Below are positions 9,907 through 28,105 of a stretch of 64,000 nucleotides of DNA, one piece after another. Source of the DNA: an uncultured virus (IMG/VR IMGVR_UViG_3300025633_000001) (taxonomy: Duplodnaviria > Heunggongvirae > Uroviricota > Caudoviricetes); IMG/VR virus record IMGVR_UViG_3300025633_000001; one strand, 5' to 3'. The position numbers and the translations under genes are program-made. Under the pieces are notes generated by a model. It saw nothing but the letters and a program-made list of their open reading frames with translations, was not told the DNA's origin and did not search any database. Each line of letters opens with the position of its first letter. The stretch's first letter is position 1.

Positions 9907-10010
9907 GGGTGGTCCTCGTCGTGCAGGCAGCCGCCAGGACTGCACTGGGGAGAGCGCTCCAGGCGCTCCGGGGTCAGCTACCTAACCGGAATACCGGTAT
10001 ACTCTTATCC

Positions 10011-11842: not shown

Positions 11843-12081
11843 CAGCCCTCCACGCGCTCCGGCCAATGCCACGAGCCGCCCTTGCGCTCGCCGGCCAGGT
11901 CGTCGTCATCGAAGACGACGCCCCGGTTGAGGAACAGGCCAGTGGGGTTGAGGACGCACAGGCCGACGGTGTGATCGTCCTCGACTTCGGTCACGATCGC
12001 GGCGCGGCATTCCTTGCCGTACTCGCCGCCGGGGGTGCCGTGGCTGGTGTAGTGCACCGTACGGCCGACAGAGGGCTTCAC
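11842..12081 (-). CDS. Conserved phage hypothetical protein
   Basis: KPSVGRTVHY...AAIVTEV...WHWPER motif; GAAGGAG RBS. Confidence 0.65.
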   Translation of the reverse strand: MKPSVGRTVHYTSHGTPGGEYGKECRAAIVTEVEDDHTVGLCVLNPTGLFLNRGVVFDDDDLAGERKGGSWHWPERVEG

Positions 12082-12119
12082 GCGGCGTGCTCCTTCGGGT
12101 CTTGGGCGATTGCGGGCCA

Positions 12120-12380
12120 TCAGGCAGCCTCTTCAAGTACCGGGACGGAACTCCTGAGCTGCCGCGGGTCGATACCGGACGCCCGGATCCCGGCTTCGCG
12201 GGCCTGCTGCTCTGCCGCCCGGACTGCCTGCCGCGAGTGCAGCGGGTAGCCGTGCTCATCGAGGCCCTGCGGGACGAGGTAGCCGAGCATGCGCCAGCGG
12301 CGGATCGTGGGGGGCTTGACGCCGGCCAGCCTCGCGGACTCGCGGGTGGTGAGATAGCCGTCTCCGCGAGTGGGGCGCAT
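12120..12380 (-). CDS. MerR-type HTH protein
   Basis: LTTRESARLAGVKPPTIRRWRMLGYL. Confidence 0.7.
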   Translation of the reverse strand: MRPTRGDGYLTTRESARLAGVKPPTIRRWRMLGYLVPQGLDEHGYPLHSRQAVRAAEQQAREAGIRASGIDPRQLRSSVPVLEEAA

Positions 12381-12484
12381 GGACACCGCCCCGGAAATGC
12401 AAGACGCCCCGGGCGCGTGAGCGCTCCAGGGCATGGCTGTTACAGGTGATTCACATGTTAGGGGGTCGCGATGATCCAGGCAAG

Positions 12485-13687: not shown

Positions 13688-14160
13688 GCGGCAATTGTGC
13701 GTTACCGGGGCTAGTGGTGCAAACACCGGAACCGGGGATCACGCCGCGAGCCGCATCTGCGCCGGGTCGCGGTCCTTGCTGCCGTCCTGCTCCTGGGTGA
13801 CGGAGTTGTCAGGCAGGTCGTCACCCGCCAGGAAGCGGAGCGCTACGGGGAGTACGAGGAAGACGCAGGCAAGGATGATCCACAGCAGCACAGAGATACC
13901 GATCGGGCCGGATACGGACAGGTCAGACGGCCGAACGGCCACGCTGTCTAGCTTAGTGGGAGTCTGCCCGCCGATCTCCCGTGGCCCCGGCACATTACCC
14001 GCCAAACACCAGTCCAGGGCTCCCCTACTCCGATTACGGCGTCCAGTCTGGTACGTCGAACATGCCGTTGTCGTGCATGTCCGCGAGAGCCGCTTCTACC
14101 GAGTCGTCGTCCATGCCCTGATCGCGTAGCTGGTCGCGTACCTCGGCCTCGAGGATCTCG

Positions 14161-14568
14161 TCATGTATCGCTGCCATCCTGAACCTCCATGTCGCTGGTG
14201 ATGGCCGATGCGTTGTCGAACTCAGCCTGCAACAACCCGGCCATCATCGCAGCCGGCTTCTCCAGGAAGTAGGCAGCGGCGAGGATCGAGGCATCCGGGT
14301 TCTCATAGTCCCCGGCCAGCGTGATCGTCCCGGCTGCATGCTCGGTCCTGATCCACGCCGCGATCTGGCTGGTGAGCTGCGGGAGGCGGGCTACCGCGGA
14401 TGACAGTTCCCGGATGACCCGGTCGGCGTCGGACGGCTCGCCGAGCGCCTCATGGTGGCGGGTCAGGTGGTTGAGAACCTTGACCGCCTCGGCGATGGCC
14501 TCGGCCACTTCCAGGACGTACAGCGGGTCACAGGGGCCTTCGGTGGTGAGGGTGACGCTGTAGCTCAT
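14161..14568 (-). CDS. Hypothetical protein
   Basis: AAGGAG RBS; helical ORF. Confidence 0.55.
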   Translation of the reverse strand: MSYSVTLTTEGPCDPLYVLEVAEAIAEAVKVLNHLTRHHEALGEPSDADRVIRELSSAVARLPQLTSQIAAWIRTEHAAGTITLAGDYENPDASILAAAYFLEKPAAMMAGLLQAEFDNASAITSDMEVQDGSDT

Positions 14569-14823
14569 GGGTCTTCTCCTTCGTGCGTTCAGGATGCCCG
14601 TGGCGGGAGACGGCCCGCCAGCCGTTCCGCGGCGATGAACTCGGCGGCGACCCCTGGAGCGCGGATGACCTTGAGACCGTGGAAGGTGGCTATCTCGTCC
14701 GGGTGGGTGGCAGTGACGGCGTTCCAGCAGATGGCCGGGACACCGGAGGCCTCGATCGCATCAGCGAGGGAGGCGAAGGGCCGCGGGGTCTCGCCGCCGC
14801 GGTGCAGTTCGTAGATCACGGGG

Positions 14824-15297
14824 CTAGTCCGCCGGTCCTGCGGCGGCGATGGCAGCCGCCCACAGCCAGGCGACGTGGAATGCCTGGTCGAGCAGTGCGG
14901 CGCCCGTGCCGAGGCACGGATTGTCGTCGCGGCCGGGCCGGGGAGCGCCGAGACGGTAGAACTCGCCCTTGCCGGGACTTACCGTGGCGTCGAGCCGGCC
15001 GGCGAGCGCCGCGAGCGTAGTGCGGCGGTCGGCCCAGTAGTGACTGGCCGCGTCAGCGGCGAGGGCCGCCGACGCGCGGCGCCAGGAGATACGCCGGCCA
15101 GACGCGTGCAGGACGCCGAGCGAGAGCGCCTTGCACGCGGTCATCGTCGCGACGTGCCTTCCGCATGCCATCCGGCCGGATCGGCCGGGAGCTCCCTTGC
15201 CTGCTGCCTGCCGGGCGGTCTGCACCCAGTAGTCGCCGACATTATGGGCGGCGAAGAGGGCGGCGAAAATGTCGCCGGGAGTTGCGCGGGTGCTCAT
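14824..15297 (-). CDS. DUF3307-family membrane protein
   Basis: AHNVGDYWVQT, SHYWADRR, DQAFH motifs. Confidence 0.8.
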   Translation of the reverse strand: MSTRATPGDIFAALFAAHNVGDYWVQTARQAAGKGAPGRSGRMACGRHVATMTACKALSLGVLHASGRRISWRRASAALAADAASHYWADRRTTLAALAGRLDATVSPGKGEFYRLGAPRPGRDDNPCLGTGAALLDQAFHVAWLWAAAIAAAGPAD

Positions 15298-15325
15298 GGT
15301 GCTCCTGTCGCGGTGTGCGGAGAGT

Positions 15326-15652
15326 TCACGACGGTTCTGGCTTCACGTTGACGAGACGGGTTCCAGTCGGCGCATCGATCGACAGCATCGCGCTGTAGCC
15401 GGGAGTAGCCGGGTCCATCGCCGGGGCCTGCGTTATGGTGATCGGCCAGGGCGGAAGCGGATTGTCTTCGATGACCTGACCGACACCGACCTGCCAGCAG
15501 CCGTCATCGTCGTACCAGCAGTGAATGCGCATCTGCTCAGCCTCGCCGGGCGGTGCGAGATCGCCCTGCCAGTGGTCGGCGTTGAACTCGCGGGCACCTT
15601 CGCAGCCGCTGACCTCAACCAGGTCGTCGCTTGCTCCGTAGATGGTGATCAT
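15326..15652 (-). CDS. Hypothetical phage protein
   Basis: ITIYGASDDLVEV motif; AGGAG RBS. Confidence 0.6.
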   Translation of the reverse strand: MITIYGASDDLVEVSGCEGAREFNADHWQGDLAPPGEAEQMRIHCWYDDDGCWQVGVGQVIEDNPLPPWPITITQAPAMDPATPGYSAMLSIDAPTGTRLVNVKPEPS

Positions 15653-15688
15653 GGTGTTGCTCCTGTTCGTTGAGACGGGGGGGCTGTG

Positions 15689-17005
15689 TCAGCCTTGCGC
15701 GACGTGAAGGTGGCGGGGCATCTCGCGGCGGATCCGGGCGGCGGTGCGCTCACTGACGCCGCTCTGGCGGACGAGGTCGACGTTGGAGATACGCGGGTCG
15801 GCGCGCAGCAGGCGTTCGGCTTCGGCGCGCTTTTCGGAGGGGGTCGACAGCGCCTTCTGGCGTTTCGCAGCGGGGATCTTCGGCTTGCTGTTTGGCAGGC
15901 TGGCCGGGACCGTTTTGGCAGGCGCGGACGGCGCTGTTTTGGCAGGGGGGCAGGATGTCGTTTTGGCAGTCGCGGCGGGCACCGGGATGGCAGTCTGCAC
16001 CGGGGACAATTGGCGTGCCGCTGGCGGCTCGACGGAGACGGCTTCACGGGCTTTCGGCAGGAAGGCCACAGGGCGAACTGGCGGCGCCGCGAACACGGAA
16101 TGCCAGCTGCGGTAAGCCGCCACAGCCGCGGCCGCCTGCACGTCGAGCAGCAGCGTGGCCGCCGGTTCGGCGGTACCGGGGAGGACCATCGGCCACGGCA
16201 GCCAGACGGGCGAAGGGGTCACCGGTTCGAGGCGGGCGCGGCCATGACGGCGGCCGAGCGTGAACGCGCCAGGGCGGATCCGCACCCGCGCATTCCCGTC
16301 CGCGTCGAGGCTAGCTATGGCACCTCGCAGGGCGATGCGGCGGAAGGCCTGCGCGCGGCGCTCGGCAGCTCGTTTGAGCCGTGCCGCCGCGCGGTCAGCG
16401 CGGGTCCGCCGCGGGCCCAGGTTGACGATCTGGTGGGCGACCAGCCCGGCTGCCGAGATGATCGCCATCACCGCGCCGACCGTCACGCCGTGGGGGTGGC
16501 CGGGGATGACCGTGATGCCGTGCAGGAAGTTAAGTCCGGCGCCGATCGCGGCGAACACCAGCGCGCCGAGCATGAAGTGCCACACCGGGCGCTCCGGGTG
16601 ATGCCGCGCCGTCCACGTCGCCGTCGCCTCGAACGCCCACATGCCGCCCTCGCTGAACGCGGGGAGCGCGTAGCCGACCACGCCGAACAGGTCGTGGCCG
16701 TAGGCGGCCATCGCCGACCAGGCCAGCGTGCCGGGCACGAGGATCACAGGGACGAACAGCAGGTCGGTCACGTGGGAGCGCAGCCACGCCGTCCGAGCTG
16801 CCCAGCGTGCGGCACGCTGCCTGCGGGCTGCTTTCGCGTCCGCGGCCCGCGCCAGGTCCCGCTCGCGCTTCAGCCGGGCCCGCGCCTCCGACGCAGCAAC
16901 GCTAGCGTGCATCGCCGCTGCGGCGTCGTCGCGGGCGATCTGCGCTTCGTGCTCCCGGTCGCGGCGGCGCTCCTCGCGCCAGCTCGTCGGCTGCATGGTC
17001 GTCAT
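15689..17005 (-). CDS. SpdA/DUF2637-like spread membrane protein with C-terminal HTH
   Basis: N-terminal coiled coil, about 4 TM segments, Pro/Ala-rich linker, C-terminal HTH (LVRQSGVSERTAARIR). Confidence 0.6.
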   Translation of the reverse strand: MTTMQPTSWREERRRDREHEAQIARDDAAAAMHASVAASEARARLKRERDLARAADAKAARRQRAARWAARTAWLRSHVTDLLFVPVILVPGTLAWSAMAAYGHDLFGVVGYALPAFSEGGMWAFEATATWTARHHPERPVWHFMLGALVFAAIGAGLNFLHGITVIPGHPHGVTVGAVMAIISAAGLVAHQIVNLGPRRTRADRAAARLKRAAERRAQAFRRIALRGAIASLDADGNARVRIRPGAFTLGRRHGRARLEPVTPSPVWLPWPMVLPGTAEPAATLLLDVQAAAAVAAYRSWHSVFAAPPVRPVAFLPKAREAVSVEPPAARQLSPVQTAIPVPAATAKTTSCPPAKTAPSAPAKTVPASLPNSKPKIPAAKRQKALSTPSEKRAEAERLLRADPRISNVDLVRQSGVSERTAARIRREMPRHLHVAQG

Positions 17006-17094
17006 CGTGCCCTTCGGCGTAGATCTTCTGGGTCGAATGCGCGAGGTGTCCCGTCAGCCGCACAGGGGAAGCGCACGGCTGACGGGACTTGGGG

Positions 17095-17409
17095 TTAAGC
17101 CGCGAACTCCAGCTCCAGCGCCTCCCGCTGGTTCGGGCCGAGACCCTTGACGCGGCGGGTGTCCGCGATACCGAGCCGCTCCATGATCTGGATGCGGCGG
17201 GCCTTCCCGACGCCCGGCATGGCCTCGATCAGCGCGGACACCTTCATCTTGGCCAGTGCGTCGTCTTCGGCGGCGTCGGCCAGGACGGCGGTGATAGTGG
17301 TGGTGCCCCGCTTGAGCAGGTGCTTGACCTCGGCTCGCCTGGTGCGGACCTGGGCGGCCTTAGCCAGGGCGTCGGCGCGCTGCTCGGGGGTCATGATCGG
17401 TAGTGCCAT
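17095..17409 (-). CDS. mihF: Actinobacterial integration host factor (mIHF/sIHF)
   Basis: MALPxxTPEQRADALAKAAxxR...KMKVSALIEAMPGVGK...RRVKGLGPNQ. Confidence 0.93.
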   Translation of the reverse strand: MALPIMTPEQRADALAKAAQVRTRRAEVKHLLKRGTTTITAVLADAAEDDALAKMKVSALIEAMPGVGKARRIQIMERLGIADTRRVKGLGPNQREALELEFAA

Positions 17410-17470
17410 GATGTTTCTCCTTGTGGGTGCGCTCGCCCCTGATGGGCGCTCGCGGTTGAGTCGGGAAGTC

Positions 17471-17608
17471 TTAGAACCTTCGGCTGATGCGTGTCCCGAA
17501 CGGTCCGGGTATGGATGCCCAGACGGACAGGCCGCGACGGCGGCGCTTGTGGTAGTGGTGGCCGTGGAACAGCAGGTAGAGGACTCCGAGAACGATGAGG
17601 ATGACCAT
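17471..17608 (-). CDS. Small single-TM protein (not in ORF track)
   Basis: MVILIVLGVLYLLFHGHHYHKRRRRG..., 45 aa, right after the FtsK-like stop. Confidence 0.5.
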   Translation of the reverse strand: MVILIVLGVLYLLFHGHHYHKRRRRGLSVWASIPGPFGTRISRRF

Positions 17609-17609
17609 G

Positions 17610-19547
17610 TCAGGCTGCCTGTCTTTCGGTTGAGGTTTCTCGTTCGATGAAGTCGGCTAGTTCCACCGCGTCGTAGACGGCCCGGTTGCCCTGCATGGCC
17701 TTGACCTCGGGCACCGTGCGTCCCGCCTTCTTGGCGCGGTTCTTGAGCGTCCCGAACGCGCCGCTGGGGTTCTTCCAGGTGACCGGGATAAGCCCCGCGT
17801 CCCTGGCCTGCCGGATGGTCATCCAGTTCTGCACCGGGGGCGAAAGCGCAGGCGCCGGGGTCACGATCACCGCGGTGCCGTCACCGCCGCCCGTCACCGT
17901 GCCCTGCGGGACGGGATCGGCCACGTGGCCGGGCGCGAACACGGTCAGGTGCCGAAGCTTCGACGGGACACGGCCCGTGCCCGACTCGGCGAACTGGCGG
18001 GTCTGCTCGTGCGTGAAGAACGCCACCTGAACCGCCGTCACCCCGTCGCGGCCCTTCACGTACACCTGGATCCGGCCCGCGTGCTTAGACGACGAGGGCA
18101 TCGGCACGCCCTTCCCCACGAGCATCTTCCACGTGTCGTCGTCGTAGCCGGCGAGCATCCGGATACCCGCGTTCATCCGCACCGCCGCGCCCTTCGACCC
18201 ACCGCCGGCCGCCTCCGCGGTGAACCGCTGCGCCACGAACACCAGGTGGATCTTCAGCTCCCGGCCCGCGTACGACGCCGCCTCGAAACCGCGGATCGCC
18301 GGGGACACCGACGGCAGGTTCTCCCGGTCCTCCTTCGGCAGCGCCTTGTCCTCCGCGAGCCGCTCCGCCCAGTAGGCACGGAGCCGGTTCATCATCAGGT
18401 TCTGCTCCTCCAGGAACACCACCAGCCGCGGGCCGGGGCTGCCGGTCAGCTGGCCGAGCAGGTCGGTGTGGGACCGGACGAACTCCCCGCGGCGGGTGAT
18501 CTCCTTGTCCAGCCACACCAGGAAGTCGTGGATCTTCTCGATGTCATCCGCATAGGCGACGTTCGGCAGCCCCCGCAGCGACGGGTGGGAGACCAGCTTG
18601 TTGTCCAGCAGTGCGGCGATACCGCCCCGGAACAGCACCTGCGACGCCAGGCACCGGACCGTGACCGACTTCCCGCCGCCGGAGTCGATCGACAGCACGA
18701 TGTGCGGGGAATCGTTGGACAGGCTGACCTTGACGATGTTCCCGTCCTGGCCGATCCCCAGCACCAGGTCATCCACGCCCGCCTCGCGGATCGCCCGCAG
18801 GATCACGTCATCCGGCAGGTCAGGGTGACGGGGGGAACCCCACTCGATCCGGTCCAGGAACACCCACTTCGGCGCCGGGACGGGCGGGGTGAGCCGCAGC
18901 CCGATCCGCGGGCCCGTGAACTGCCACGACGCTTTCGCGCCCGACATCCCCAGCGTGGACGCCGCCGTGGCCGCGATCGCCTGCCGGTCCTGCGGCTTGG
19001 GCAGCGCCGCGCCCTTCGGCCACGTCAGCGCCGCATACGACAGGTCACGGGGGATGTCCAGCCACGACTCCGGGCTGTTCGCCACGGGGATGCCCGCGTC
19101 GGCGGCGAGACGGATGTGCAGCGGCCTGACGTAATTCTTGCGGTGCCCGTACCCCTCCAGCCACGACCGGCTGCGCCACGCCCCGTAAGCCGTCCCCGCG
19201 GCGACGGTGACGCCCAGGTACTCCAGCGTGGGACGGAACCGGAACAGCAGGCCAGCGAGGACGAGCATGGCCGTGGCGGTGTTGCGGATCCGCCACAGGG
19301 CGTGCTGCCAGCCGGGCAGGTACCAGCGGCGGTGCGCATGCCCGGTCGGGGTGAGCGCCTTCGTGCCGGGACGGAACCAGCCGCGGTTGGTGACGTTCTT
19401 GCCCGCCCAGTTCTGGTGGGCGGTCAGCCAGCGGAACACGAGCGCGTGGATGCCGTGGCGCCGGATGCGGCTGTCGTAGTGGCCCGCGACACCTGAGAAG
19501 GCGAACACCGCGAGGACCACGATGATCAGGCCGATGAGGTCTGTCAT
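17610..19547 (-). CDS. TraB/FtsK-SpoIIIE-like DNA translocase
   Basis: N-terminal TMs, Walker A-like HIVLSIDSGGGKS, Walker B VVFLEEQN, RELKIHLVFVAQR, C-terminal HTH-like tail. Confidence 0.78.
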   Translation of the reverse strand: MTDLIGLIIVVLAVFAFSGVAGHYDSRIRRHGIHALVFRWLTAHQNWAGKNVTNRGWFRPGTKALTPTGHAHRRWYLPGWQHALWRIRNTATAMLVLAGLLFRFRPTLEYLGVTVAAGTAYGAWRSRSWLEGYGHRKNYVRPLHIRLAADAGIPVANSPESWLDIPRDLSYAALTWPKGAALPKPQDRQAIAATAASTLGMSGAKASWQFTGPRIGLRLTPPVPAPKWVFLDRIEWGSPRHPDLPDDVILRAIREAGVDDLVLGIGQDGNIVKVSLSNDSPHIVLSIDSGGGKSVTVRCLASQVLFRGGIAALLDNKLVSHPSLRGLPNVAYADDIEKIHDFLVWLDKEITRRGEFVRSHTDLLGQLTGSPGPRLVVFLEEQNLMMNRLRAYWAERLAEDKALPKEDRENLPSVSPAIRGFEAASYAGRELKIHLVFVAQRFTAEAAGGGSKGAAVRMNAGIRMLAGYDDDTWKMLVGKGVPMPSSSKHAGRIQVYVKGRDGVTAVQVAFFTHEQTRQFAESGTGRVPSKLRHLTVFAPGHVADPVPQGTVTGGGDGTAVIVTPAPALSPPVQNWMTIRQARDAGLIPVTWKNPSGAFGTLKNRAKKAGRTVPEVKAMQGNRAVYDAVELADFIERETSTERQAA

Positions 19548-20182
19548 CGGGAGACCCTCCGGGAACGGAGAGACCGGAGGGTCTGAGGGTTGAGGGATGA
19601 AAAAAAGGACGGACAGATGAATGGAAGAGGGAACCTTCCTGTGCCGTGCGGACGGTCACTGGTGACAAAGAGCTGTGACAGACCGCGGAATCTGACCGCA
19701 CCCCACCTGACCTGGAGTTTATGACAGAGATAGGGGTCCGGTGACAGATCCCCGGCCCGCTCTGTCACAGCCCGCTCCAGGCGGTGCCGGGCCATGTCTT
19801 CCAGGTTCGCCTCGCGGGTATCCCAGCGGATCCTGGCGAGGTGGTTGTCGGTGCGGATCCCGTCGTTGTGGCACGCCTCGTAGCCGGGGCCGGGCCGCTG
19901 GCTGCGGTGGGCCTCGAGCACGAGCACGGCGACGGCGGCCTTGCGCCTGCGCTGGCCGTCCCGCAGGGTCACGTACAGGTAGCCCTTGCCGGGCCGCTTG
20001 TCCGGGTGCTGCGGGAGCATCTGACCGAGCCGCAGGCGACCGGCCGCGTCCAGGTAGTCGAGCATCCGGACCTGGCCGCAGCTGCTCGCCTCATGATGCG
20101 GCCACGCCGGGACTAGCTTCCATTCCTCGTCATCGCAGCAGCCAGCGATGCCGTTCAGCTCGAGGACGCTAGGCGCGCTCAA
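19544..20182 (-). CDS. NUMOD4-HNH endonuclease
   Basis: EEWKxV...EASSCGQVR, GYLYVTL, CHNDGIRTDNHLARIRW; AGGAG RBS before TTG. Confidence 0.75.
   Translation of the reverse strand: MSAPSVLELNGIAGCCDDEEWKLVPAWPHHEASSCGQVRMLDYLDAAGRLRLGQMLPQHPDKRPGKGYLYVTLRDGQRRRKAAVAVLVLEAHRSQRPGPGYEACHNDGIRTDNHLARIRWDTREANLEDMARHRLERAVTERAGDLSPDPYLCHKLQVRWGAVRFRGLSQLFVTSDRPHGTGRFPLPFICPSFFSSLNPQTLRSLRSRRVSR
19661..19768. repeat. Cluster of 8-mer RTGACARA repeats
   Basis: Direct copies at 19662, 19675, 19721, 19741; inverted copy at 19761. Confidence 0.6.
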
Positions 20183-20411
20183 TGGTTGCTCCTGTCTTCC
20201 TGGTCCGGTGCAGCCTGCCCGCGAGGGAGGTGGCCGCCGTCGTCGCCCGTGTCCGCAGTCCGCCGCCCCATCGCAGTCCTGCGAGAGCCGCCCCAAGCGC
20301 GGTGGCGGGGGCGGCCAGGCCGGCGGGGAGCGGCCAGCCGGCGAGAATCAGGGCGATCCCGGCCAGCCAGCCGATGGTGACGGCGGCACGGACGATGACG
20401 GCGGTCTTCAC
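20169..20411 (-). CDS. Small two-TM membrane protein
   Basis: Hydrophobic ORF within the transfer-like operon. Confidence 0.45.
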   Translation of the reverse strand: MKTAVIVRAAVTIGWLAGIALILAGWPLPAGLAAPATALGAALAGLRWGGGLRTRATTAATSLAGRLHRTRKTGATIERA

Positions 20412-20424
20412 GGTTCCCCTTAGG

Positions 20425-21081
20425 TCAGGTGCGGGCAGGCGGGGTGCGGCGGGGGCGGGCGGCGGGGGCAGGTCCGGGCAGCGGGTCGTCCCACCCGGCC
20501 GCGGGGTCGCGGCGAATCTCCGCGAGCATCTCCGGCGTCCGCGAGAGCCAGTGCTCGCCATTGCTGATCGGCTTGTGAACGACACCGGGTGCACGGGTGC
20601 CGGACCTGGGCGTGCGGGTCTGCCCGCTTGCACGGGCCGCCGGGCGGGGGGTACGGGCGGGCGCGGACGGTGCCGGACGTGCGGGCGTCCATCCCGGCGC
20701 ACTGCCGGACCACGGACTGCTGGACCGACGTCGCCGGCGGCGGGTCGGCTTCAGTCCCTTGACCCGGTCGGCCACGCGCTTCCGGCCTTTCCCCATCTCG
20801 ACGACGAGTTCCTTGACGAGACGGCGCTGGACCGCCCATACCTTGGTGCGGCGCAACTGGGTCAGCAGGCTCTTGGCGCGGCGGTTCAGCGGGCGCCAGT
20901 GTCCCGCCTGGGGGCGTCCGGGTGGGGTGGACGGGGCTGCCCGCTTCCACCGGGAGCGGTGGATCTCGTTGACCAGCTCACCGACCATGACGTGCTGCAC
21001 GGATGCGTGCTTGGTGCGGCGAAGGCGGTGTATCAGGTGCCTTCCCCTGCGGCTCAGCCTCTTGTAGTCGCGTTGTGCCAT
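20425..21081 (-). CDS. Very basic hypothetical protein with internal duplication
   Basis: LSRRGRHLIHRLRRTK...VGELVNE repeated as LNRRAKSLLTQLRRTK...VKELVVE; GAGGAGG RBS. Confidence 0.5.
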   Translation of the reverse strand: MAQRDYKRLSRRGRHLIHRLRRTKHASVQHVMVGELVNEIHRSRWKRAAPSTPPGRPQAGHWRPLNRRAKSLLTQLRRTKVWAVQRRLVKELVVEMGKGRKRVADRVKGLKPTRRRRRRSSSPWSGSAPGWTPARPAPSAPARTPRPAARASGQTRTPRSGTRAPGVVHKPISNGEHWLSRTPEMLAEIRRDPAAGWDDPLPGPAPAARPRRTPPART

Positions 21082-22883
21082 GCGGGTACTGCCTCCTCGG
21101 GGGCGTAATCAGGTGTCGCGGTGGCGGACCCGGACCCGGACAGGGCCGGGACGGGAGGCTTCTGCGTGACGGCGGACGGCGGGGCCGGGGGCATCGGGAT
21201 CGGCTCGCGGCGGGGCGCGGCGATCGCAGGCTGCACCTGCCCGCGGGCGGCGGCGTCCTGGCCGGGGAGTTCCGCCTGCCGGTAGCCAGGCAGGTCCCAG
21301 ACGGGCGTCATGACCGCCTCGACGGGGCGGGTGTTGCGGTGGATCACCAGCATGTGCCACTTCGCCAGCATCCGGATCCGCTCCGGGGGGAACAGGCGTT
21401 CCTGCCGGGGGGTGCGGGTCTTGGAGCCGTCCGGGTTCCTGGTGTGATCCCAGGTGTCCCGCATCCCGCACACCGACGACAGGGATTCCAGTTCGGTCTC
21501 GTCGGTGAAACCCCCGCCGATGACCTTGACGGTGAAGTTGGTCTTGATGGTTTTCGCGTCATGCTCGCCCCACCGGGCAGTCAGCTGGGACAGCGCCTGG
21601 ATCCCGGCGATGACCGTGATGTTGTAGCCCGCGGCCACGCTGGTCCACTTGTGCAGCGGGACGGGCACGATGGTGGCGACCTCATCGAGCGCGAGCATGA
21701 GCGGGCGGGCGAGCCGTCCGCCGTTCGCGGCTGCTGCCTGCTTGGCTGCCTCGAACAGCTCGTCCGTGAACGCGGCGAAGTACGGGGCGAGCGAGCCGTG
21801 CTCACGGTCCGAGCCGATCATGTAAACGGTGCCGAAACCGACGTCGGCGAACAGCCGGCAGTCGAAACCGCCACCGGGGACAGGGCAGGCGGTCGACGCC
21901 ATCTCCGGATCGTCCATCCAGCGCAGCGCGCCCGCGGCGCCCGCGGCGACGTGGCCTAGCTGCTCGTCGTTCGCGCACAGGGCCTCCAGCGCCTGCGCCC
22001 AGCCCGGCGCGGCGTACTCGCTGGCCAGGATCGCGGCGGGGGCGGGGGCGGACGGGTCACGGACCCACGCGGTGACATCGCGCATGGTGGCCCCGGCGAG
22101 CGCCCCGGCGTGCAGCATCAGGCGGAGCAGGTCGGCGCCCTTGGCGTCCCAGTAGGCGTCTTTCCCGCCCTTGTCGGACGGCGCGGCGGCCATCAGCGCG
22201 CCCGCCCGTCGGATCGCGGTGCGGGGATCCTGGCAGCCCTCCAGCGGCGACCACGCGAGCGTCGACAGGATGCCGCCGTCCCCGTCCGGGTTCAGCACCC
22301 AGACCGGGCCCGCGGCCTCGCGGGCGGCGATGGTGTGGAGGTACAGGTCAACCCGCGAGGAGGTGGCCAGCAGCGAGCCGGGGGCGTTCATCGCCCACCC
22401 GGCGATCAGCGCGGTCTTCATGGTGCGAGGAGGAGCTATGACGAGGTAGGAGTCTTCAAGCGAACCGGCGAGATCCTGGCCTCTAGCGCGGCCGAGCGAA
22501 ACGGCGGCCGCGGACGGGATGAGGCCGGGGCAGGTGCGGCGGGCGTGGCGGGCGGCCGTCTCCGGGGACAGCTTGGCGCGCAGTTCCCGGCGGGTCGCGG
22601 TGCCCTGGTACTTCCGGCGGGCGCGCATGGCGGCCTTGCCGCCGGAGCGGTGCCAGGCGCGGTCCTCCCACAGCTTCAGCCCGGCGTGCATCAGCCCGGC
22701 GGCGGCGACGGCGACGGGAAGCGGGGCCAGCGGCGGGACGTGACCGGCGTAGTCGGCGACCCCGGAGGCAGCAAGGGCGGTGCCGTAGGTCAGGACGTAC
22801 GGAGCGGAGGCCCTGGCCATCACGGTCCGCTTCAGCTCGGCAGCACGGCGGATCCTGCCGGGAGACCTCGCGGTTGCGGTCAT
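21054..22883 (-). CDS. TraG/TraD/VirD4-like coupling-protein ATPase
   Basis: N-terminal TMs, APPRTMKT, WSPLEGC, LALDEVATI, QALSQLTARWG motifs. Confidence 0.85.
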   Translation of the reverse strand: MTATARSPGRIRRAAELKRTVMARASAPYVLTYGTALAASGVADYAGHVPPLAPLPVAVAAAGLMHAGLKLWEDRAWHRSGGKAAMRARRKYQGTATRRELRAKLSPETAARHARRTCPGLIPSAAAVSLGRARGQDLAGSLEDSYLVIAPPRTMKTALIAGWAMNAPGSLLATSSRVDLYLHTIAAREAAGPVWVLNPDGDGGILSTLAWSPLEGCQDPRTAIRRAGALMAAAPSDKGGKDAYWDAKGADLLRLMLHAGALAGATMRDVTAWVRDPSAPAPAAILASEYAAPGWAQALEALCANDEQLGHVAAGAAGALRWMDDPEMASTACPVPGGGFDCRLFADVGFGTVYMIGSDREHGSLAPYFAAFTDELFEAAKQAAAANGGRLARPLMLALDEVATIVPVPLHKWTSVAAGYNITVIAGIQALSQLTARWGEHDAKTIKTNFTVKVIGGGFTDETELESLSSVCGMRDTWDHTRNPDGSKTRTPRQERLFPPERIRMLAKWHMLVIHRNTRPVEAVMTPVWDLPGYRQAELPGQDAAARGQVQPAIAAPRREPIPMPPAPPSAVTQKPPVPALSGSGSATATPDYAPEEAVPAWHNATTRG

Positions 22884-23716
22884 GACCGTGACCTCCTTCT
22901 CCGCTGCGGTGGCCGCCCGGACGGGTCGTGCTCGGGATTACGGATGCCGGGCCGGTCGCGCGGCGCCCGGTCCCAGACCGGATCACGGCCCGGCGTCGGC
23001 CTGACCGACGCGATGTGGTTCGGGAGATGCGACTCCCCGGCGTGAGCGGCACGGCGGTGGTCGCGACTCCACGCCTCGCCCTCAGCGCTTTCCAGCCACT
23101 CGACAGCCGGGTCTTTCGGCCTGGTCACCGTGACCTCCTCGGGGCGCGCTGCGCCCGCTCCTGCCGGTCCGACTCCCGCTGGAGGCGGATCAGGTCCTGC
23201 TCGGCGTCGACCCGCTGGAAGTGCCACCAGCGCTGGACCGGGCTCAGCGGGCGCTCGGCTTCCAGTACCCGGCCGTTGAGGTCGTCGCAGGGAGGGGTCT
23301 CCTCGCGGATGCCCGCGCGGCGCTCGTACAGGGCCTGCGTGTGCAGGTCGCGCACCGCCTTGCGGAACGCCGCGGCCTGCTCGGCGGTCCCGGTGCGGAT
23401 GCCTGGGAACCAGCGGCCCATCAGTTCCTCCCCCGGCGGCCCTGGACGCGGGCCTGCACCCGCCGGAACTGCTCCCGCTCCCGGCGCCCGCGCTTGCACG
23501 TCTCGCGAAAGGCCCGGAGGCGGCTCGCATCGTCATACAGCCCCAGCGCGGACGCGTCGGCGAAGGTCCGCCCGATCGCGGGGTCGACCCGGCGCGGCTG
23601 GAAGTCCGCGCGGATCCGGGCGGACAGGTTGTCGGCCTTGATCTGCTCCTCGCGGCGGCGCTCCTGCTGCATCCGCTCGGCCTCGCGGTCCTGGCCGAAT
23701 CCGGGCCACTTGAGCA

Positions 23717-23998
23717 TCAGGCCGCCCTCCGCTGCTGCCGCTTGACCAGCGCGTGACGCATCGCCGAACGCTCGTCCCCGTCGAACCCGGCCCACACGTC
23801 GTCATCCCGCTGCCGTTCGAAGCTGAGACGGAAGTCCAGGCACGGCCCGGTGACCTCGCACGACGCGCACACGGCCTTGGCCTGCGCTTCCCGGACCTCA
23901 CGGGCGGCAGGCGACTCGCCGTCGGGCGAAAAGAACAGCTCGGGATCTTCGCCGCGGCAGGCTGCGCTGTACCGCCAGCTGAGGGCCGTGACGCTCAT
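23717..23998 (-). CDS. WhiB-family transcription factor
   Basis: WRYSAACRGEDPELFF...AKAVCASCEVTGPCL...VWAG; four Cys. Confidence 0.9.
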   Translation of the reverse strand: MSVTALSWRYSAACRGEDPELFFSPDGESPAAREVREAQAKAVCASCEVTGPCLDFRLSFERQRDDDVWAGFDGDERSAMRHALVKRQQRRAA

Positions 23999-24591
23999 GA
24001 CGCCACCCCGGCTGGCAGTCCGCCCGCCAGTGCGTCCCAGAGCAGATCGTTGCGGCCCCATTCGGGATCGATGATCGTGACCTGCCACGCACCGCACAGG
24101 GACCTCACGGCCTCCTTGCGGCAGATCCCGTAGCCGACGACGGGGCTGCGGATGTCACGGCGCGGACGGGCAGCGCCGAACCATGTCGCGTCATCGCCGC
24201 GGTAGCGGGTCACCGGGACTGCGTCGTCGTAACGGACGCGGCGGCGGGGCATCATCGACGGCGGGTAGGCGACGACACGCAAGGCCGCGCGCTGCGCAGT
24301 GCCGATCAGCCTCAGCGCGGTGCCTTGCGCGGCGAAACCCTCCACGGCTGCGCGCTGATCAGACTTCTCGTCGCCGATGCGGTAGCCGGGCTGGCTGCCG
24401 GACGTCAGGTACCCGGCGCGGTTCATCTGTGCCAGGACGGGGATCAGGCGCTCGGTCTCGGGGTCCGGGCCGCAGCCGGCTTGATAGGCCGGCTGCGAGG
24501 CCAGGTCGCCTTCCAGCCAGCGGGCGGTCAGCTCGCCGAGGTCGGCCAGGGTGCGGGCAGCTGCCCACTGCTCGCGGTCGGCGCGGTTCAT
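23995..24591 (-). CDS. DUF6919-like protein
   Basis: WAAARTLADLGELTARWLEG...GYLTSGSQPG...QRAAVEGF...DPEWGRN. Confidence 0.65.
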   Translation of the reverse strand: MNRADREQWAAARTLADLGELTARWLEGDLASQPAYQAGCGPDPETERLIPVLAQMNRAGYLTSGSQPGYRIGDEKSDQRAAVEGFAAQGTALRLIGTAQRAALRVVAYPPSMMPRRRVRYDDAVPVTRYRGDDATWFGAARPRRDIRSPVVGYGICRKEAVRSLCGAWQVTIIDPEWGRNDLLWDALAGGLPAGVAS

Positions 24592-25118
24592 GACGCCGCC
24601 TTAGCGCAGGCGCCGTACTCGCGGTAGCGGCGCTTCTCGTCCCCGCCGCGGGCAGGGAGTCCCGCGTTCCACCGCTCCCACGCGGTCAGGCCGGATGCGT
24701 GCTCGCCGCCGAGGACGATCCCCGCGCCGAACGCGGTGCGCTCGTCCAGCGCCACGGCGGCGTAGTCGGCTTCGCTGATCAGTCCCCGGCGGAAGGCCCG
24801 GTGGAAGCGGGCGACGTGCATGCCTCCCGGTCCGGCGTTCGCGCACGGCTGGCCGGGACCGGACCAGCACCGGCCGCAGGTGGCCCGGAGGGCGGTCTCG
24901 GCGATCTCCGCCAGGGTGCGCGCGGGGGTCGCGTCCTGCCCGATGGCATCGAGGATGACCGCGAAGGCGTCGGCCTCGCGGGACGGCACAGGGAAGGCCA
25001 GCGCCGCGCGGGCCAGGCTGACGAGCCGGGCGGCGGACCCACGGTCCCCCTCTTTCGCTACGCAGGCGGCGGCGGAGGCGTGGTCCAGGGCCTTGCTCAG
25101 GGCGGCGATGTCCGTCAC
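24588..25118 (-). CDS. Zn-finger hypothetical protein
   Basis: CGRCWSGPGQPC...HVARF; start uncertain. Confidence 0.45.
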   Translation of the reverse strand: MTDIAALSKALDHASAAACVAKEGDRGSAARLVSLARAALAFPVPSREADAFAVILDAIGQDATPARTLAEIAETALRATCGRCWSGPGQPCANAGPGGMHVARFHRAFRRGLISEADYAAVALDERTAFGAGIVLGGEHASGLTAWERWNAGLPARGGDEKRRYREYGACAKAAS

Positions 25119-25509
25119 CGGGACGCCTGCCGGATCGCGTCGTCGCACAGGGACGCGTAGATCGCCATCGCCATCGCCGTCTCCTGCGGGGTCTCCGGGT
25201 ACAGGGCGGGACGGCGGGACTGGGTACGGGGGGTCAAGGGGATTACGGGTGCTATCGTGTCGGGCATCGGTCAGGTACCTTTCCGGCAGGCTAGGGATTT
25301 GGCTTTTCGCGGGGCCGCATTGCAGTGCGGCCCCGCTTTCGTATGTCTGGGTGCGGTTCACCGGGCACCGCTGTTCACGAAGGCGGTCCAGCCGCCGGCG
25401 CAGATCCGGCCGACAGCAGCACGCACCTCCCGGTCGGTGAGGGCGGCGGGGTCGTGGTCGTCGTGGAGGTCGGAGAGCCACTCGCGGGCTGCGGCGTAAA
25501 GGTCGGACA

Positions 25510-25716
25510 TCAGGCCGCCGCCCGCTCAGGTTCGGTGCCGAGGGCGCGAACCTTCGACTCGCGGTAGCGTCTGTGTCCGCCTGGGGTCTTCTCGGCGTCG
25601 AGGAGGCCGCAGGCGTTCCAGTAGCGCAGGCTCCTCGGGGAGACGCGGCGAAGCGCTGCGGCCTCAGCAGGCGTAAGCAGCCGGTCCTCCGCGTCTCGTT
25701 CCGAAGCAGTGTCCAC
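25510..25716 (-). CDS. BldC/MerR-like (excisionase-type) HTH protein
   Basis: LLTPAEAAALRRVSPRSLRYW...KTPGGHRRYRESKV. Confidence 0.8.
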   Translation of the reverse strand: MDTASERDAEDRLLTPAEAAALRRVSPRSLRYWNACGLLDAEKTPGGHRRYRESKVRALGTEPERAAA

Positions 25717-25762
25717 GTTCTCCGTCCTTCTAGCCGGTCTGGCCCGGCTTGCCGTTTTGGCC

Positions 25763-25840
25763 GTCTACCCCTTAACGTATAGACCTAGACGACAGTCGTC
25801 AAGTCCTAGACGATCGAAACGGGTCTAGAGCTATACGCTT
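25763..25840. promoter_or_regulatory. Divergent promoter region with TAGAC operator-like repeats
   Basis: CCTAGACGA at 25784 and 25805 (21 bp apart), inverted GTCTAG at 25823, TACGCT -10 at 25834. Confidence 0.55.
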
Positions 25841-25845
25841 GGAAG

Positions 25846-26184
25846 GTGGATAATGCCCCGCTCGCAGATGAGGCCGCTAGCGCGCTCGCCGTGCTGCGCA
25901 AGTTGCTCGACCGCATCGACGCGATGGACGGATCTGACGCGAGGACGACCGCGATACGCGAGCTGGCCGAGGCGATCCAGGAGCTCTACAACCGGGCGGC
26001 CGAGATCCGCAAGAACGAGATGTTCCGCATCAGGGAACGTGAGCAGTTGTCACTAGCCAAACTCGCCGACAAGGTGGGGATCAGCAAGGCTCGCGCCGAC
26101 CAGCTCATCAAGGCCCGAGAGAAGGAGGACGGCAATGCTAGAGCCGATGACGGTGCGGGTGGAGGTCTGGCCAGTCGTTGCTGA
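25846..26184 (+). CDS. HTH regulator
   Basis: LSLAKLADKVGISKARADQLI. Confidence 0.7.
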   Translation: MDNAPLADEAASALAVLRKLLDRIDAMDGSDARTTAIRELAEAIQELYNRAAEIRKNEMFRIREREQLSLAKLADKVGISKARADQLIKAREKEDGNARADDGAGGGLASRC

Positions 26185-26647
26185 TGAAGTCGGACTATGG
26201 CTGATCAGCGGCGACGATGCCTGGCGGTCAGACAACGTGATGGCGGACAGCGACCTGCATTTCGAGGTTGAGTTCCTTCTCGGGGGCTACGGGATCACCG
26301 AGACGAACGCCCTGCACTCCACATCGTGGAGGCCTCAGGGAACGGCAGTCATCCTGACCTACATGGCGGCGATGGAAGTCGGCGGGTTCGCCCGCGACTA
26401 CTGGCCTTCCGCTCAGCCGATCACGCCGGCGCTCGCCGAAGCAGTCGGCAAGCCCCCGACGCATGCGCCGACAGAACCGCCCGTACCGCGGTTCATTGAC
26501 GTCCTGTTCCACGGGCTGCGGCACCTGCACTACCTGATGGACAACGACGCGACCAACGCCACCGCGTTGGGTGACCTGTGGCAACGGCACCTCGAACCGT
26601 TCCGGCCCGCGCTCGCCGGCATGTACTCCGAGAGGCATGTGGCATGA
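26135..26647 (+). CDS. Degenerate Nudix-fold protein
   Basis: HSTSWR...VILTY...DVLFHGLRHL; canonical Nudix box absent. Confidence 0.5.
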   Translation: MLEPMTVRVEVWPVVADEVGLWLISGDDAWRSDNVMADSDLHFEVEFLLGGYGITETNALHSTSWRPQGTAVILTYMAAMEVGGFARDYWPSAQPITPALAEAVGKPPTHAPTEPPVPRFIDVLFHGLRHLHYLMDNDATNATALGDLWQRHLEPFRPALAGMYSERHVA

Positions 26648-27023
26648 CGACGCCGCTTTCCGAATGGACCTGCTACCACTGCGGCGAGAAGTGCGGCGGC
26701 CGGTCGCCGCGCGGATACGCGGGCCTTACCAGCCTCAGCGAGCCGCTGCACGCCACGTGCAGCCCCGACGACGCGAACCTGTACCCGGACTGCCATCGCA
26801 GGATTACCGAGTTCGGCGAGCCGACCGGGGCGCTGCGGAACGTTGACCCTAAGCCGGTCGGGATCGAGGGCATCGTTCACAGCAGCTAGCCCGGACACAG
26901 CAAAGGCCGGGCGTTCTAGCGCCCGGCCAGAGCTGATCATCAGCGAGTAGCCGACGAATCCACCAGTGCCCATCGTAAGGCACTACCTCGCCGACCTCGC
27001 GTTGAGCATGCGCGAACGGAGGG

Positions 27024-27719
27024 GTGTGCTTGGCCTGCAACGCGCCGCAACGCCAGTGTCTTGAGTGGCACGTCAAGCCGCACCTAGACGACCCCGAGTT
27101 CTACAAAGGGGACCTGGCCAAGGGTTTCGATGATGGCTACAGCGCACGTTGCCCGGCTCACGACGACAGGCACCGCTCGTTCACGGTCAACCCCGGCAAG
27201 CACCGTATCTGGTACCAGTGCCACGCCGGATGCGACCAGCTGGCAGTCCGGGCCGAACTCATCGCCAAGGGCGTACCTGATGAGTGCCTGCCCATCTCGA
27301 AGCAGCGACAGGAGGACTTGATCGAACAGCTGAACCGGCTGCTCACCACCGCAGGCATGGAGGACGGCCACAAGGTACTGCTGGCGCTGGCCCACGTGCG
27401 CGGGATGAGCGAGTTGCCCAGAGGGAAGAAGCTTGAGGCGCTGGCCGCCGACGCGAGCACGATCTCTAACGCCAGTGCGTACCGTTACAAGAGGGCCGGA
27501 GCGCGGGGGCAAGACCCGACTTCTGGAAGTTACCCCACTAGTCAAGCCGAAAGCAAGAACCAAAGGTCACCTCGGTGTTTCCCCGCATCAGAAAACTCTC
27601 ACGGTGCGAGTAGCTCTCACGGTGATAGCTCCAAAACTCTCACGGTGAGAGTTGGCGGCAATGCTAATAACAGGACGACCAATTCTCGAACCGAGAAAAC
27701 GGGAGATGAGGCAGCATGA
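27024..27719 (+). CDS. Primase-type Zn-finger + HTH-like protein (copy 1)
   Basis: RCPAHDDRHRS...CHAGC; no TOPRIM or helicase domain seen; paralog at 59811-60302. Confidence 0.7.
   Translation: MCLACNAPQRQCLEWHVKPHLDDPEFYKGDLAKGFDDGYSARCPAHDDRHRSFTVNPGKHRIWYQCHAGCDQLAVRAELIAKGVPDECLPISKQRQEDLIEQLNRLLTTAGMEDGHKVLLALAHVRGMSELPRGKKLEALAADASTISNASAYRYKRAGARGQDPTSGSYPTSQAESKNQRSPRCFPASENSHGASSSHGDSSKTLTVRVGGNANNRTTNSRTEKTGDEAA
27596..27653. repeat. Three CTCTCACGGTG palindromic boxes
   Basis: Copies at 27596, 27614, 27637; third is perfect AACTCTCAC-G-GTGAGAGTT. Confidence 0.85.
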
Positions 27720-28105
27720 TTAGTCCCGAGGTCATCCCCTTCGGCAAGTACAAGGGGCAGTCCGTCGAGGTCGTGGCCGCCGACACGGACTACTGCGAGT
27801 GGCTCACTGCGCAGAAGTGGTTCAAGGGCAAATACCAGAGTCTCTACAGGACGCTAACCAGCCACGGGACCGAGCCGACAGCCAGTACGGCCCCGCCGCT
27901 TCCCGTCTTCATCGGTGAGACCGAACCTGCATCCGCTATCTCGGAGACCGCCGAATACTGGCCGCCATGGGAGCCGCCCCCGGTGCCCGGCTGTCTGGCC
28001 GAGTCGGGAATCCCGGTGACCGGGCTTGTGTGGTGCCCGGTGCACGAGGAGTACGAGGAGCTGTGCGACGGTGCGTCGGCCGTTCGCCTTGCGGGCACTC
28101 GATGA
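27716..28105 (+). CDS. PFGKYKG-domain (DUF3820/ExoX C-terminal-like) protein
   Basis: IPFGKYKGQSV...YCEWL. Confidence 0.65.
   Translation: MISPEVIPFGKYKGQSVEVVAADTDYCEWLTAQKWFKGKYQSLYRTLTSHGTEPTASTAPPLPVFIGETEPASAISETAEYWPPWEPPPVPGCLAESGIPVTGLVWCPVHEEYEELCDGASAVRLAGTR

Follow-up and report, generated by a model that had tools for sequence, protein, structure and literature searches.

Phages and conjugative elements are customarily seen as separate routes of gene flow. Actinobacterial integrative and conjugative elements (AICEs) of the pSAM2 type have the layout int-xis-rep-tra-spd-pif, and AICEs are not known to include a type IV coupling protein (T4CP). In the plasmid system of the pSVH1 type, TraB recognises direct 8-bp repeats known as clt, and TraR of the traB-traR kil-kor pair is a GntR-type regulator (PMC4447253). 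The same paper cites homologues of the membrane protein SpdB2 in the temperate Streptomyces phages phiC31 and VWB (its refs 34, 35), for which an idea similar to the one developed below was already raised (Thoma et al., PMC4447253), and pZL12/phiZL12 is described as a Streptomyces tailed phage that also carries a conjugal transfer locus (PMC3583192).

Here we analyse a stretch of 64,000 nucleotides (hereafter the window) of an uncultured tailed virus, IMG/VR record IMGVR_UViG_3300025633_000001, in which a co-oriented block of genes encodes a VirD4-type coupling ATPase, an FtsK/TcpA/TraB-like pump and a membrane protein of SpdB2/DUF2637-like build. An earlier description of this DNA, made from its letters without database searches (the sequence-only reading), had taken positions 14824-26647 for a hyphal transfer module of AICE or plasmid type inside a tailed phage. 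According to our analysis the module is an integral and recurrent part of phage genomes, and since plasmid-type DNA-pumping genes are thus a conserved part of the genome, it would be logical to suggest that such phages may spread without virus particles. The 108 genes of the window were called by third-position GC content (GC3) and then scanned with Pfam, PHROGs and NCBIfam; at a G+C content of 68% most of the open reading frames (ORFs) on the program-made list are spurious. By these calls and scans the window, which comes from peat-soil DNA, belongs to a single temperate siphophage.

The two ATPases and their partners

The central genes of the module are as follows.

21054-22883, minus strand: VirD4/TraG-type coupling ATPase (T4CP) with the variant P-loop APPRTMKT (Pfam, PDB)
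20425-21081, minus strand: p218, a partner gene of 218 amino acids (aa) downstream of the T4CP
19544-20296, minus strand: HNH endonuclease of the homing-endonuclease type (phrog_1492, 3.5e-24; PADLOC HEase, 3e-5)
17610-19547, minus strand: membrane-anchored FtsK/TcpA/TraB-like translocase of double-stranded DNA (dsDNA) with a small C-terminal DNA-binding-like domain, as predicted (the pump)
17471-17608, minus strand: 45-aa peptide with one transmembrane (TM) helix (hydropathy 1.7 over residues 1-19; GC3 gene call)
17095-17409, minus strand: actinobacterial integration host factor (IHF), mIHF/sIHF type (NF041260, 4.3e-37; H2TH_5, 1.9e-29)
15689-17005, minus strand: 438-aa membrane protein of SpdB2/DUF2637-like build (hydropathy; weak HTH_24)
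15891-15969, minus strand: array of four direct copies of CTGCCAAA, spaced 23-24 bp, in the 3' part of the 438-aa gene

The TraG/VirD4-like ATPase named in the sequence-only reading is well founded, as three Pfam families match above their cut-offs (TraG-D_C at 9.6e-22, 77.7 bits against 22; T4SS-DNA_transf at 2e-12, 47.2 against 20.1; TrwB_AAD_bind at 2.7e-7, 30.2 against 20.5) and TrwB is matched in PDB (8e-5). Its P-loop has T-M-K-T in place of the canonical G-K-[ST]. Among 111 aligned members of the clade the residue before the P-loop lysine is glycine in 58 and another residue, mostly L, M or F, in 53, and both K-[ST] and the Walker B DE are retained across the alignment; with the variant so common in the clade and these residues kept, we consider it a conserved variant and not a lesion. 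The absence of a relaxase and of VirB4, also claimed earlier, is borne out by the lack of any relaxase or AAA_10/VirB4 family among the 108 ORFs in Pfam.

The pump was the other ATPase of that reading, as TraB/FtsK-like. Searched by itself against Pfam, it has an FtsK-like match under the cut-off (E=0.005), and the identification becomes firm by the family profile, the invariant Walker motifs and the predicted fold. In 30 sequences the Walker A residues G290, G292, K293 and S294 (GxGKS) and the Walker B pair E380/E381 are invariant; the profile of these sequences finds TcpA (6e-10) and FtsK (5e-5) in PDB, and the AlphaFold2 (AF2) model, with a predicted local distance difference test (pLDDT) of 83, is matched in Foldseek by TcpA (1.5e-15) and by FtsK motors (~1e-14) over 400-440 columns. 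A hydrophobic helix at residues 4-22 (hydropathy 2.67) is the predicted N-terminal anchor, long N-terminal helices are seen in the model, and after a disordered linker residues 575-645 are modelled as a small helix/beta-hairpin domain without a Pfam match. A predicted complex of the pump N-terminus with the membrane region of the 438-aa protein scored 0.00, a value which counts neither for nor against binding.

The 438-aa protein has a charged N-terminus, 3-4 TM helices (segments near 82-100, 149-167 and 176-194 by hydropathy), a linker and a C-terminal helix-turn-helix (HTH) domain (HTH_24, weak, 0.0022). The earlier assignment as SpdA/DUF2637-like was not confirmed as a family call. The protein fits in architecture and position, namely a charged or coiled N-terminus, about four TM helices, a C-terminal domain and a gene lying by the translocase, but the family match is not borne out: PF10935 (DUF2637) gives none at E<=1, a plasmid DUF2637 protein reaches E=4.5 by BLASTP, and the hhalign probability is 3%. 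Proteins at the same position in relatives are true DUF2637 members (G003, at 1.1e-16, L019, L023, L024, L060 and L065). On plasmids the 438-aa protein has one relative, 48% identical over the TM domain (1e-29) and encoded directly upstream of an FtsK gene on the Amycolatopsis plasmid pXL100, with WhiB and NUDIX genes nearby.

The mIHF assignment is correct (NF041260, above cut-off). The HNH gene located between both ATPases had been overlooked; p218 has no family match in Pfam. In the contig G002 the HNH protein (L013 (G002), 16878-17774) ends in a domain 42% identical to the C-terminal domain of the pump (E=9e-15), which is not found in the HNH protein of the window; this could mean that nuclease and pump have a common DNA target, or it could be left over from homing. 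LAGLIDADG domains occur in one pump (P0045, 987 aa; also a 986-aa gene in L085, 12974-15931) and in one T4CP (P0165, 950 aa), which suggests that these proteins contain inteins.

Relatives on plasmids

The pump matched proteins of 59 plasmids, 56 of them from Streptomyces, at 30-34% identity and E down to 1e-47. These relatives are annotated as pRL2-11, DUF87, 'Tra protein' (pFRL6) or FtsK, and by such sequence comparison the pump appears kin to plasmid Tra proteins; with SCP2 TraA and the FtsK of pXL100 no pairwise similarity was found past the P-loop. On pRL2 and pFRL6 a DUF2637 gene lies just upstream of the pump relative, and on pFRL6 a 'conjugal transfer protein' gene just downstream. A DUF2637-type membrane protein thus accompanies the pump on plasmids (pRL2, pFRL6) as well as in phages (G003, L019/L023/L024, L060/L065). 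The DUF2637 protein of G003 itself has relatives on 296 plasmids (281 of Streptomyces), including SCP2.27c in the SCP2 tra region. The earlier view that the ATPases and their membrane partner are kin to Streptomyces plasmid transfer genes is supported by these matches.

The T4CP has matches on 447 actinobacterial plasmids, and the 25 listed reach at most ~36% identity. In the two plasmid contexts examined a giant MobF relaxase is encoded in both and a DUF2637 protein in one; BLASTP of p218 and the 438-aa protein against the proteins of the plasmid neighbours gave nothing. As the pump kin are of the TraB type and the T4CP kin of the relaxase/T4CP type, the phage module joins parts of two plasmid systems around a common kind of membrane partner, and it is without a relaxase.

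Recurrence in phages and metagenomes

Two IMG/VR contigs, G003 (44 kb) and G002 (20 kb), carry a T4CP of 59-66% identity and a pump of 65% identity to those of the window. The order in both is DUF6919 protein, T4CP, p218, HNH, pump, membrane protein, phrog_1568 protein, MerR-like regulator and TerL, while their TerL, portal, capsid and tape-measure families differ from the window's. Scanning IMG/VR with the pump profile gave 33 loci, three of which also have the T4CP (L017, which is G003; L018, which is G002; and L022). Seven diverse pump loci were annotated: packaging, tail or lysis genes lie within 10 kb in six of them and an integrase in five, and in L023 only integrases, repressor and HNH genes were seen near the pump. 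A gene order of DUF2637, HNH and pump, beside an integrase, is shared by L019, L023 and L024.

Of the 31 loci that a metagenome scan with the T4CP profile gave, 14 have the pump downstream of the T4CP and in the same orientation. These 14 represent fewer independent lineages, because L066 is the G002 contig and L059-L062 look like near-duplicates. In 16 of the other 17, less than 1.5 kb of sequence remains past the T4CP match, and in L069 no pump is seen in the remaining 2.1 kb. In the same 31 loci p218 follows the T4CP in 12 (34-67% identity; also in G002 and G003), HNH stands between T4CP and pump in 10 (it adjoins the pump in L019, L023 and L024 as well), IHF comes after the pump in six, and four have a BldC-like gene ahead of the T4CP. 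A true DUF2637 gene follows the pump in L060 and L065, and L060 ends at a GH25 lysin. Identical 'longest contig' values suggest that at least 12 T4CP and pump matches sit on shared contigs. In both L062 and L085 the opposite strand carries an upstream gene for a GntR regulator, the regulator type to which plasmid TraR belongs.

Similarity to isolated phages is scarce. No match came from 50,697 records of isolated phages when the block was searched by megablast and the T4CP and the 438-aa protein by tblastn, and tblastn of the pump matched phage Dagobah alone. The pump-profile scan of genome contigs gave one locus, in a Streptosporangiaceae metagenome-assembled genome, a count that depends on the peptide pattern and is no measure of absence. 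The open-access literature searched contained nothing relevant on phage-encoded T4CP/VirD4 in Actinobacteria or on DUF2637 in Streptomyces.

Two observations concern annotation and mobile DNA at these loci. The family phrog_733, labelled 'excisionase' in PHROGs, is DUF2637 by Pfam (~1e-9) in L019 (8347-8925) and L023 (8778-9548), and the label could be misleading for phage annotation. Genes of IS605-type TnpB (OrfB_IS605 and Cas12f1-like TNB) and of IS200 transposase lie in or beside the module in L062 (6011-7762) and L076 (9570-10208).

A repeat array in the membrane-protein gene

Defining an array as at least four copies of an 8-mer inside 120 bp, we found two in the window, the AGGGTTCGG iterons and the CTGCCAAA array, and none in 100 simulated windows. 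The CTGCCAAA copies are located just ahead of the HTH-encoding region of the 438-aa gene and occupy two reading frames, and they use CCT and AAA codons, which are in the minority in the window (10% and 14%). The repetition is therefore independent of the frame. At the same position G002 has five copies of GCCTCAAA in two frames and L062 about nine copies of CGGAACC in all three. Some 392 kb of related loci contain only three arrays, two of them at this position; an 'array' of GCGGCGAA in G003 was dismissed as a chance GC-rich match.

It was tempting to regard the array as a clt read by the tail of the pump. We set this aside, as the C-terminal domain of the pump is 88% identical between the window and L062 though their array motifs are unrelated. 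The HTH of the membrane protein behaves in another way: it is 53% identical between the window and G002, where the motifs are related, and in L062 it is unrelated. Because the motif tracks that HTH and not the pump tail, we take the array as a candidate binding site of the 438-aa protein's own HTH, which may act as a membrane tether for the DNA.

Continuity of the block with the phage genome

On the minus strand the co-oriented block starts at 25716, reaches 10680 and continues into terS/TerL, and its conserved part extends left of 14824, the limit given in the sequence-only reading. That reading had placed the block between the immunity region and the head genes, without an integrase or att of its own, and we agree: the HTH pair at 31106-32199 lies on one side and TerL (8094-9410) on the other, no integrase or Rep is found by Pfam within 10.7-26.9 kb, no direct repeat of 18 nt or longer flanks the block as the att-like boundary of a separate element, and its composition equals that of the flanks. 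Its co-occurrence with phage hallmark genes is likewise confirmed by three further IMG/VR phage contigs, whose TerL, portal and major capsid protein differ from those of the window.

By contigs and records that match the window with 0 differences, a chimera is in practice excluded. Beginning inside the T4CP gene, the IMG/VR record G001 reads across the right junction and is the same as positions 21211-43437 (0 mismatches). Run X1, possibly the source sample, yields a single contig of 37,830 bp that is identical to the window over 9001-29000 (0 differences), with an even depth of ~25. X2, a different sample and study, gives identical low-depth pieces inside and outside the block, and the piece 25579-25891 crosses the right boundary; joints with sides of <=21 letters were counted as spurious GC-rich matches when reads were placed on the window. 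The left junction, from the module to TerL, is also present in G002, G003 and L022. A scan for promoters and terminators was uninformative (0 sigma-70-like sites; 9 terminator-like sites against 6.3 expected).

Other genes of the block and of the phage

The remaining genes of the block and the divergent pair facing it are these.

25510-25716, minus strand: BldC-like MerR-type HTH protein, first gene of the block (PF00376, 6.1e-9; MerR_1, 9e-8)
24588-25481, minus strand: 297-aa ORF, start uncertain, no family
23995-24591, minus strand: DUF6919 protein (PF21897, 3.5e-48)
23125-23795, minus strand: two small Arg-rich ORFs, no TM helix by hydropathy, no family in Pfam or PHROGs
15326-15652, minus strand: 108-aa phage protein (phrog_10666, 2.7e-11)
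14824-15297, minus strand: 157-aa protein, 'membrane protein' in PHROGs (phrog_2470, 4.7e-13)
13739-14005: TM peptide (hydropathy)
12120-13726, minus strand: Cys-rich DNA-binding protein and MerR-like regulator (phrog_1568, 2.4e-9; phrog_2474, 3.5e-12)
25846-26184, plus strand: 112-aa HTH-like protein, divergent (phrog_686, 4e-5; weak Pfam HTH, E ~0.09)
26135-26647, plus strand: 170-aa Nudix-fold protein (AF2 pLDDT 97 and Foldseek)

Several smaller assignments of the earlier description changed here. The first gene is of the MerR type (PF00376), as had been said, but its BldC identity stays below the NCBIfam cut-off (NF033787 HTH_BldC, 5.6e-15, 54.9 bits against 77). WhiB had to be given up, as PF02467 matches no ORF of the block (E<=0.01; the 297-aa ORF at E<=1), and that 297-aa ORF has no match in Pfam, PHROGs, NCBIfam or PADLOC; a WhiB-domain protein (1.3e-18) is encoded upstream of the T4CP in the relative L067 (4148-4786). 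DUF3307 is sub-threshold (E=0.032, 14.7 bits against a cut-off of 23). The small membrane proteins are not the ORFs at 23125-23795, which lack TM helices, but TM peptides do exist at 17471-17608 and 13739-14005. The DUF6919 gene had been overlooked and has a 50% identical counterpart upstream of the G003 T4CP. The pair of phrog_1568 protein and MerR-like regulator is kept between module and terminase, being upstream of TerL in G002, G003 and L022.

The divergent HTH and Nudix-like pair was partly confirmed: the Nudix fold stands by AF2 and Foldseek, the HTH has weak matches only, and neither a Pfam NUDIX match, or any other Pfam family, nor the catalytic box is found in the 170-aa protein. Foldseek relates the model to proteins of Nudix fold, first of all the Nudix-related regulators AraR (1e-4) and NrtR (6e-3), then 2fml (3e-3) and also NadQ and NudC, with E from 1e-4 to 5e-2 and a template-modelling score of ~0.5 for the best match. 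An Atlas look-up placed the 170-aa protein with Nudix families only at 0.85, which was used as a lead and not counted as evidence. The catalytic Nudix box has the consensus GX5EX7REUXEEXGU, and it is present, by strict or loose pattern, in 0 of 45 members of the family. With the box absent in all 45, the fold would serve something other than hydrolysis, perhaps, from the modelled similarity, ligand sensing. The family has 286 representatives at 50% clustering and a conserved HSTSWR motif.

The phage genome around the block contains the following.

513-9410, minus strand: head-tail connectors, major head protein, minor head protein, portal and TerL
8094-9410, minus strand: TerL (Pfam)
31106-32199: divergent HTH pair, probably the immunity switch
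34316-44526, plus strand: early operon with RecE/RecT, RusA, C5 methylase, replication initiator, DnaB and MazG
40409-41428, plus strand: replication-initiator-like gene (phrog_270/391, ~3e-6)
52153-52228: complete tRNA-Met
52762-54195: tyrosine integrase
~61.7-63.2 kb, minus strand: lysis genes

Six copies of AGGGTTCGG(A) at 40824-40982, spaced by 36 and 21 bp, lie within the replication-initiator-like gene and are probably the iterons of the phage origin. The tRNA-Met gene, where the plus-strand early operon ends, is 534 bp away from the 3' end of the integrase gene, and the stretch 52153-54195 is likely the attP region. Two 20-nt direct repeats, AAAACTCTCACGGTG(C/A)GAGT, at 27592-27652, 41 bp apart and each partly palindromic, stand in an AT-richer intergenic stretch and look like operators. 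No tail gene is among the 108 called genes. Because the head-tail connectors leave the window at its left end, lysis genes lie at its right end and tail genes are absent from it, and with window proteins recorded on a contig of up to 87,206 bp, we infer a circularly permuted genome of ~87 kb with tail genes outside the window. Pfam found no ParA/ParB or plasmid Rep in the window (~23 kb of the contig lies beyond it), so that within the window this is not a phage-plasmid in which plasmid replication or partition genes replace integration.

Proposed function and competing explanations

Taken with their conservation and their relatives on plasmids, the parts of the module indicate an apparatus for moving dsDNA through a membrane. 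We propose that in a lineage of temperate actinobacterial siphophages the block has been inherited as an accessory module and would form a relaxase-less DNA-translocation apparatus of plasmid type, with a hexameric FtsK/TraB-like pump, a polytopic SpdB2/DUF2637-like partner bearing an HTH, a VirD4-type ATPase and a phage IHF. The excised circle or replicating DNA might be held at the membrane by the 438-aa HTH on the 8-mer array in its own gene, IHF might bend this DNA and the pump translocate it, and the phage dsDNA would in this way cross septal cross-walls or pass between touching hyphae, free of a capsid. To such a conjugation-like movement of phage dsDNA across septa or between hyphae we give a probability of roughly 0.4. 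The broader proposition, that integrative temperate phages are also self-transmissible without virions by a two-ATPase, relaxase-less apparatus with the T4CP acting on dsDNA, we hold to be doubtful.

Several points weigh against the proposed transfer. A T4CP ordinarily depends on a relaxase and a type IV secretion system, and we know of no mechanism for a relaxase-free T4CP; the Pfam scan of the window offers no relaxase or VirB4 as its partner, a single MobF query found relatives in 0 of the 31 metagenome T4CP loci, and the P-loop of the window's T4CP is non-canonical. A mycelial host, which we presume, would be a premise of the proposal. The co-orientation of the module directly upstream of the packaging genes suggests expression near cell lysis, and genes needed for lytic growth are where inteins and an HNH homing endonuclease are typically met with. 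A simple model in which the TraB tail reads clt does not fit the 88% identity of the pump tails of the window and L062, given their unrelated arrays. For the FtsK-like genes of virulent Streptomyces phages, replication or developmental roles are proposed by the authors (PMC11536984, PMC13587820, PMC10117723).

Some of the same observations would be expected if the module handled phage DNA inside the cell, in the manner of the host FtsK, by clearing septa, segregating DNA to daughter compartments or spores, or resolving concatemers before packaging. The pump is FtsK-like, the module is upstream of and co-oriented with terS/TerL, inteins and the adjacent homing endonuclease suggest importance in lytic growth, the virulent phages just cited carry comparable genes, and an array whose motif follows the HTH of a membrane-tethered protein is reminiscent of a centromere or anchor. 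We nevertheless regard intracellular handling as less likely than transfer, because the nearest named relatives of the pump are plasmid transfer proteins and not chromosomal FtsK, a VirD4-type T4CP has no known segregation role, and distant relatives have the module by an integrase and not by packaging genes. Prophage defence genes are often located by the integrase/immunity cassette, which is where the pump stands in L019, L023, L024, L028 and L039, and the HNH nuclease is a constant neighbour, with regulator-like Nudix-fold and HTH proteins facing the operon; a membrane ATPase complex and nuclease could then block or expel plasmid, AICE or phage DNA, or disturb a rival TraB. Such an exclusion function is improbable, however, as PADLOC matches of the block proteins are limited to the HNH protein ('homing endonuclease', 3e-5) and an HTH protein (mad1), and no defence system with a T4CP and FtsK-like pair is known to us.

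A decaying or selfish passenger, a remnant of a captured plasmid or integrative and conjugative element without function for the phage, would account for the missing relaxase, VirB4, Rep and own integrase, for the non-canonical P-loop and for IS200/IS605 insertions within the module in L062 and L076. Against this, the order is retained though the pumps are only 30-65% identical and the head genes differ, the catalytic residues of the pump are invariant, the variant P-loop is clade-wide with K-[ST] and DE kept, and all the genes in the window are open, which makes a passenger very improbable. An assembly chimera of phage and plasmid or AICE may be thought of for any metagenomic sequence, the more so as G001 starts within the T4CP gene, but with G001 identical across the right junction, the X1 contig of even depth, the identical X2 pieces and the recurrent left junction it is hardly credible.

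If the proposed transfer is true, a phage could reach neighbours without lysis, and models of phage host range, of spread in soil and of gene transfer in antibiotic producers would have to change. In mycelial actinomycetes cross-walls confine a genome to the compartment it has entered, and a pump-bearing phage could lysogenise or exploit the whole mycelium. A T4CP without a relaxase and with a variant P-loop, together with a membrane-protein gene that carries a candidate array of its own, gives handles on how substrates are found in dsDNA transfer of the Streptomyces type.

Comparison with known systems

Like pSAM2-type AICEs, the module has one FtsK-like translocase with a membrane partner, and a protein of Nudix fold is encoded close by; it differs in having a T4CP and in lacking int/xis/rep and the Nudix box. 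The AICE-like make-up claimed in the sequence-only reading is therefore not upheld: there is no own integrase, Rep or Spd set, and the T4CP kin are found in MobF-relaxase systems and not in TraB/Spd ones. The analogy with Pif, drawn there as well, fails on the missing Nudix box in the family of the 170-aa protein. By the title of Zhong et al. 2010 (J Bacteriol 192:3747), pZL12 is an autonomous plasmid, and it is not known to carry a T4CP; compared by description only, the phage of the window has instead a tyrosine integrase (52762-54195), and no plasmid partition gene was found by Pfam in the window.

The pSVH1-type TraB/SpdB2/clt system (Thoma et al. 2015, PMC4447253) resembles the module in an FtsK-like pump at the membrane, whose C-terminal end may also bind DNA in the module, in a polytopic partner that has a charged N-terminus and some four TM helices, and in 8-bp direct repeats, here only a candidate cis site. 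In the module, though, the pump belongs to the pRL2-11/pFRL6 'Tra' clade, the repeats change with the membrane protein and not with the pump, an Spd operon is missing, and T4CP, HNH and IHF are added. As for phiC31 and VWB, these are likewise temperate actinophages with a plasmid spread-type membrane protein: VWB gp24 is a DUF2637 protein (1.2e-35), 40% identical to that of G003 (1e-16), and we infer that it is the published SpdB2 homologue, but VWB has no detectable relative of the window's pump or T4CP.

Plasmids with MobF, T4CP and DUF2637 (NZ_CP149448.1, NZ_CP109138.1) carry the closest relatives of the T4CP among those listed (33-35% identity, E down to 3e-54). On NZ_CP149448.1 the DUF2637 gene adjoins the T4CP; the MobF plasmids encode a relaxase of ~1600 aa, which has no relative in the window or in the 31 metagenome loci. 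TcpA of the Clostridium perfringens plasmid pCW3 (PDB 6o1w) is the best match of the pump among solved structures, by profile (6e-10) and by fold (1.5e-15), while at ~16% identity it belongs to a separate conjugation system of Firmicutes.

Precedents for a meeting of phage and plasmid transfer genes do exist in the plasmid-phage pZL12, the SpdB2-like genes of phiC31 and VWB and the FtsK-like genes of isolated Streptomyces phages. What is new is the conserved joining of a VirD4-type T4CP to a TraB-like pump in integrative phages, a union we take as new because relatives of the T4CP are absent from the 50,697 phage records, and new, too, are an apparatus that has no relaxase, the clade with the variant P-loop, a phage-encoded IHF within the module and an array varying with its membrane adaptor.

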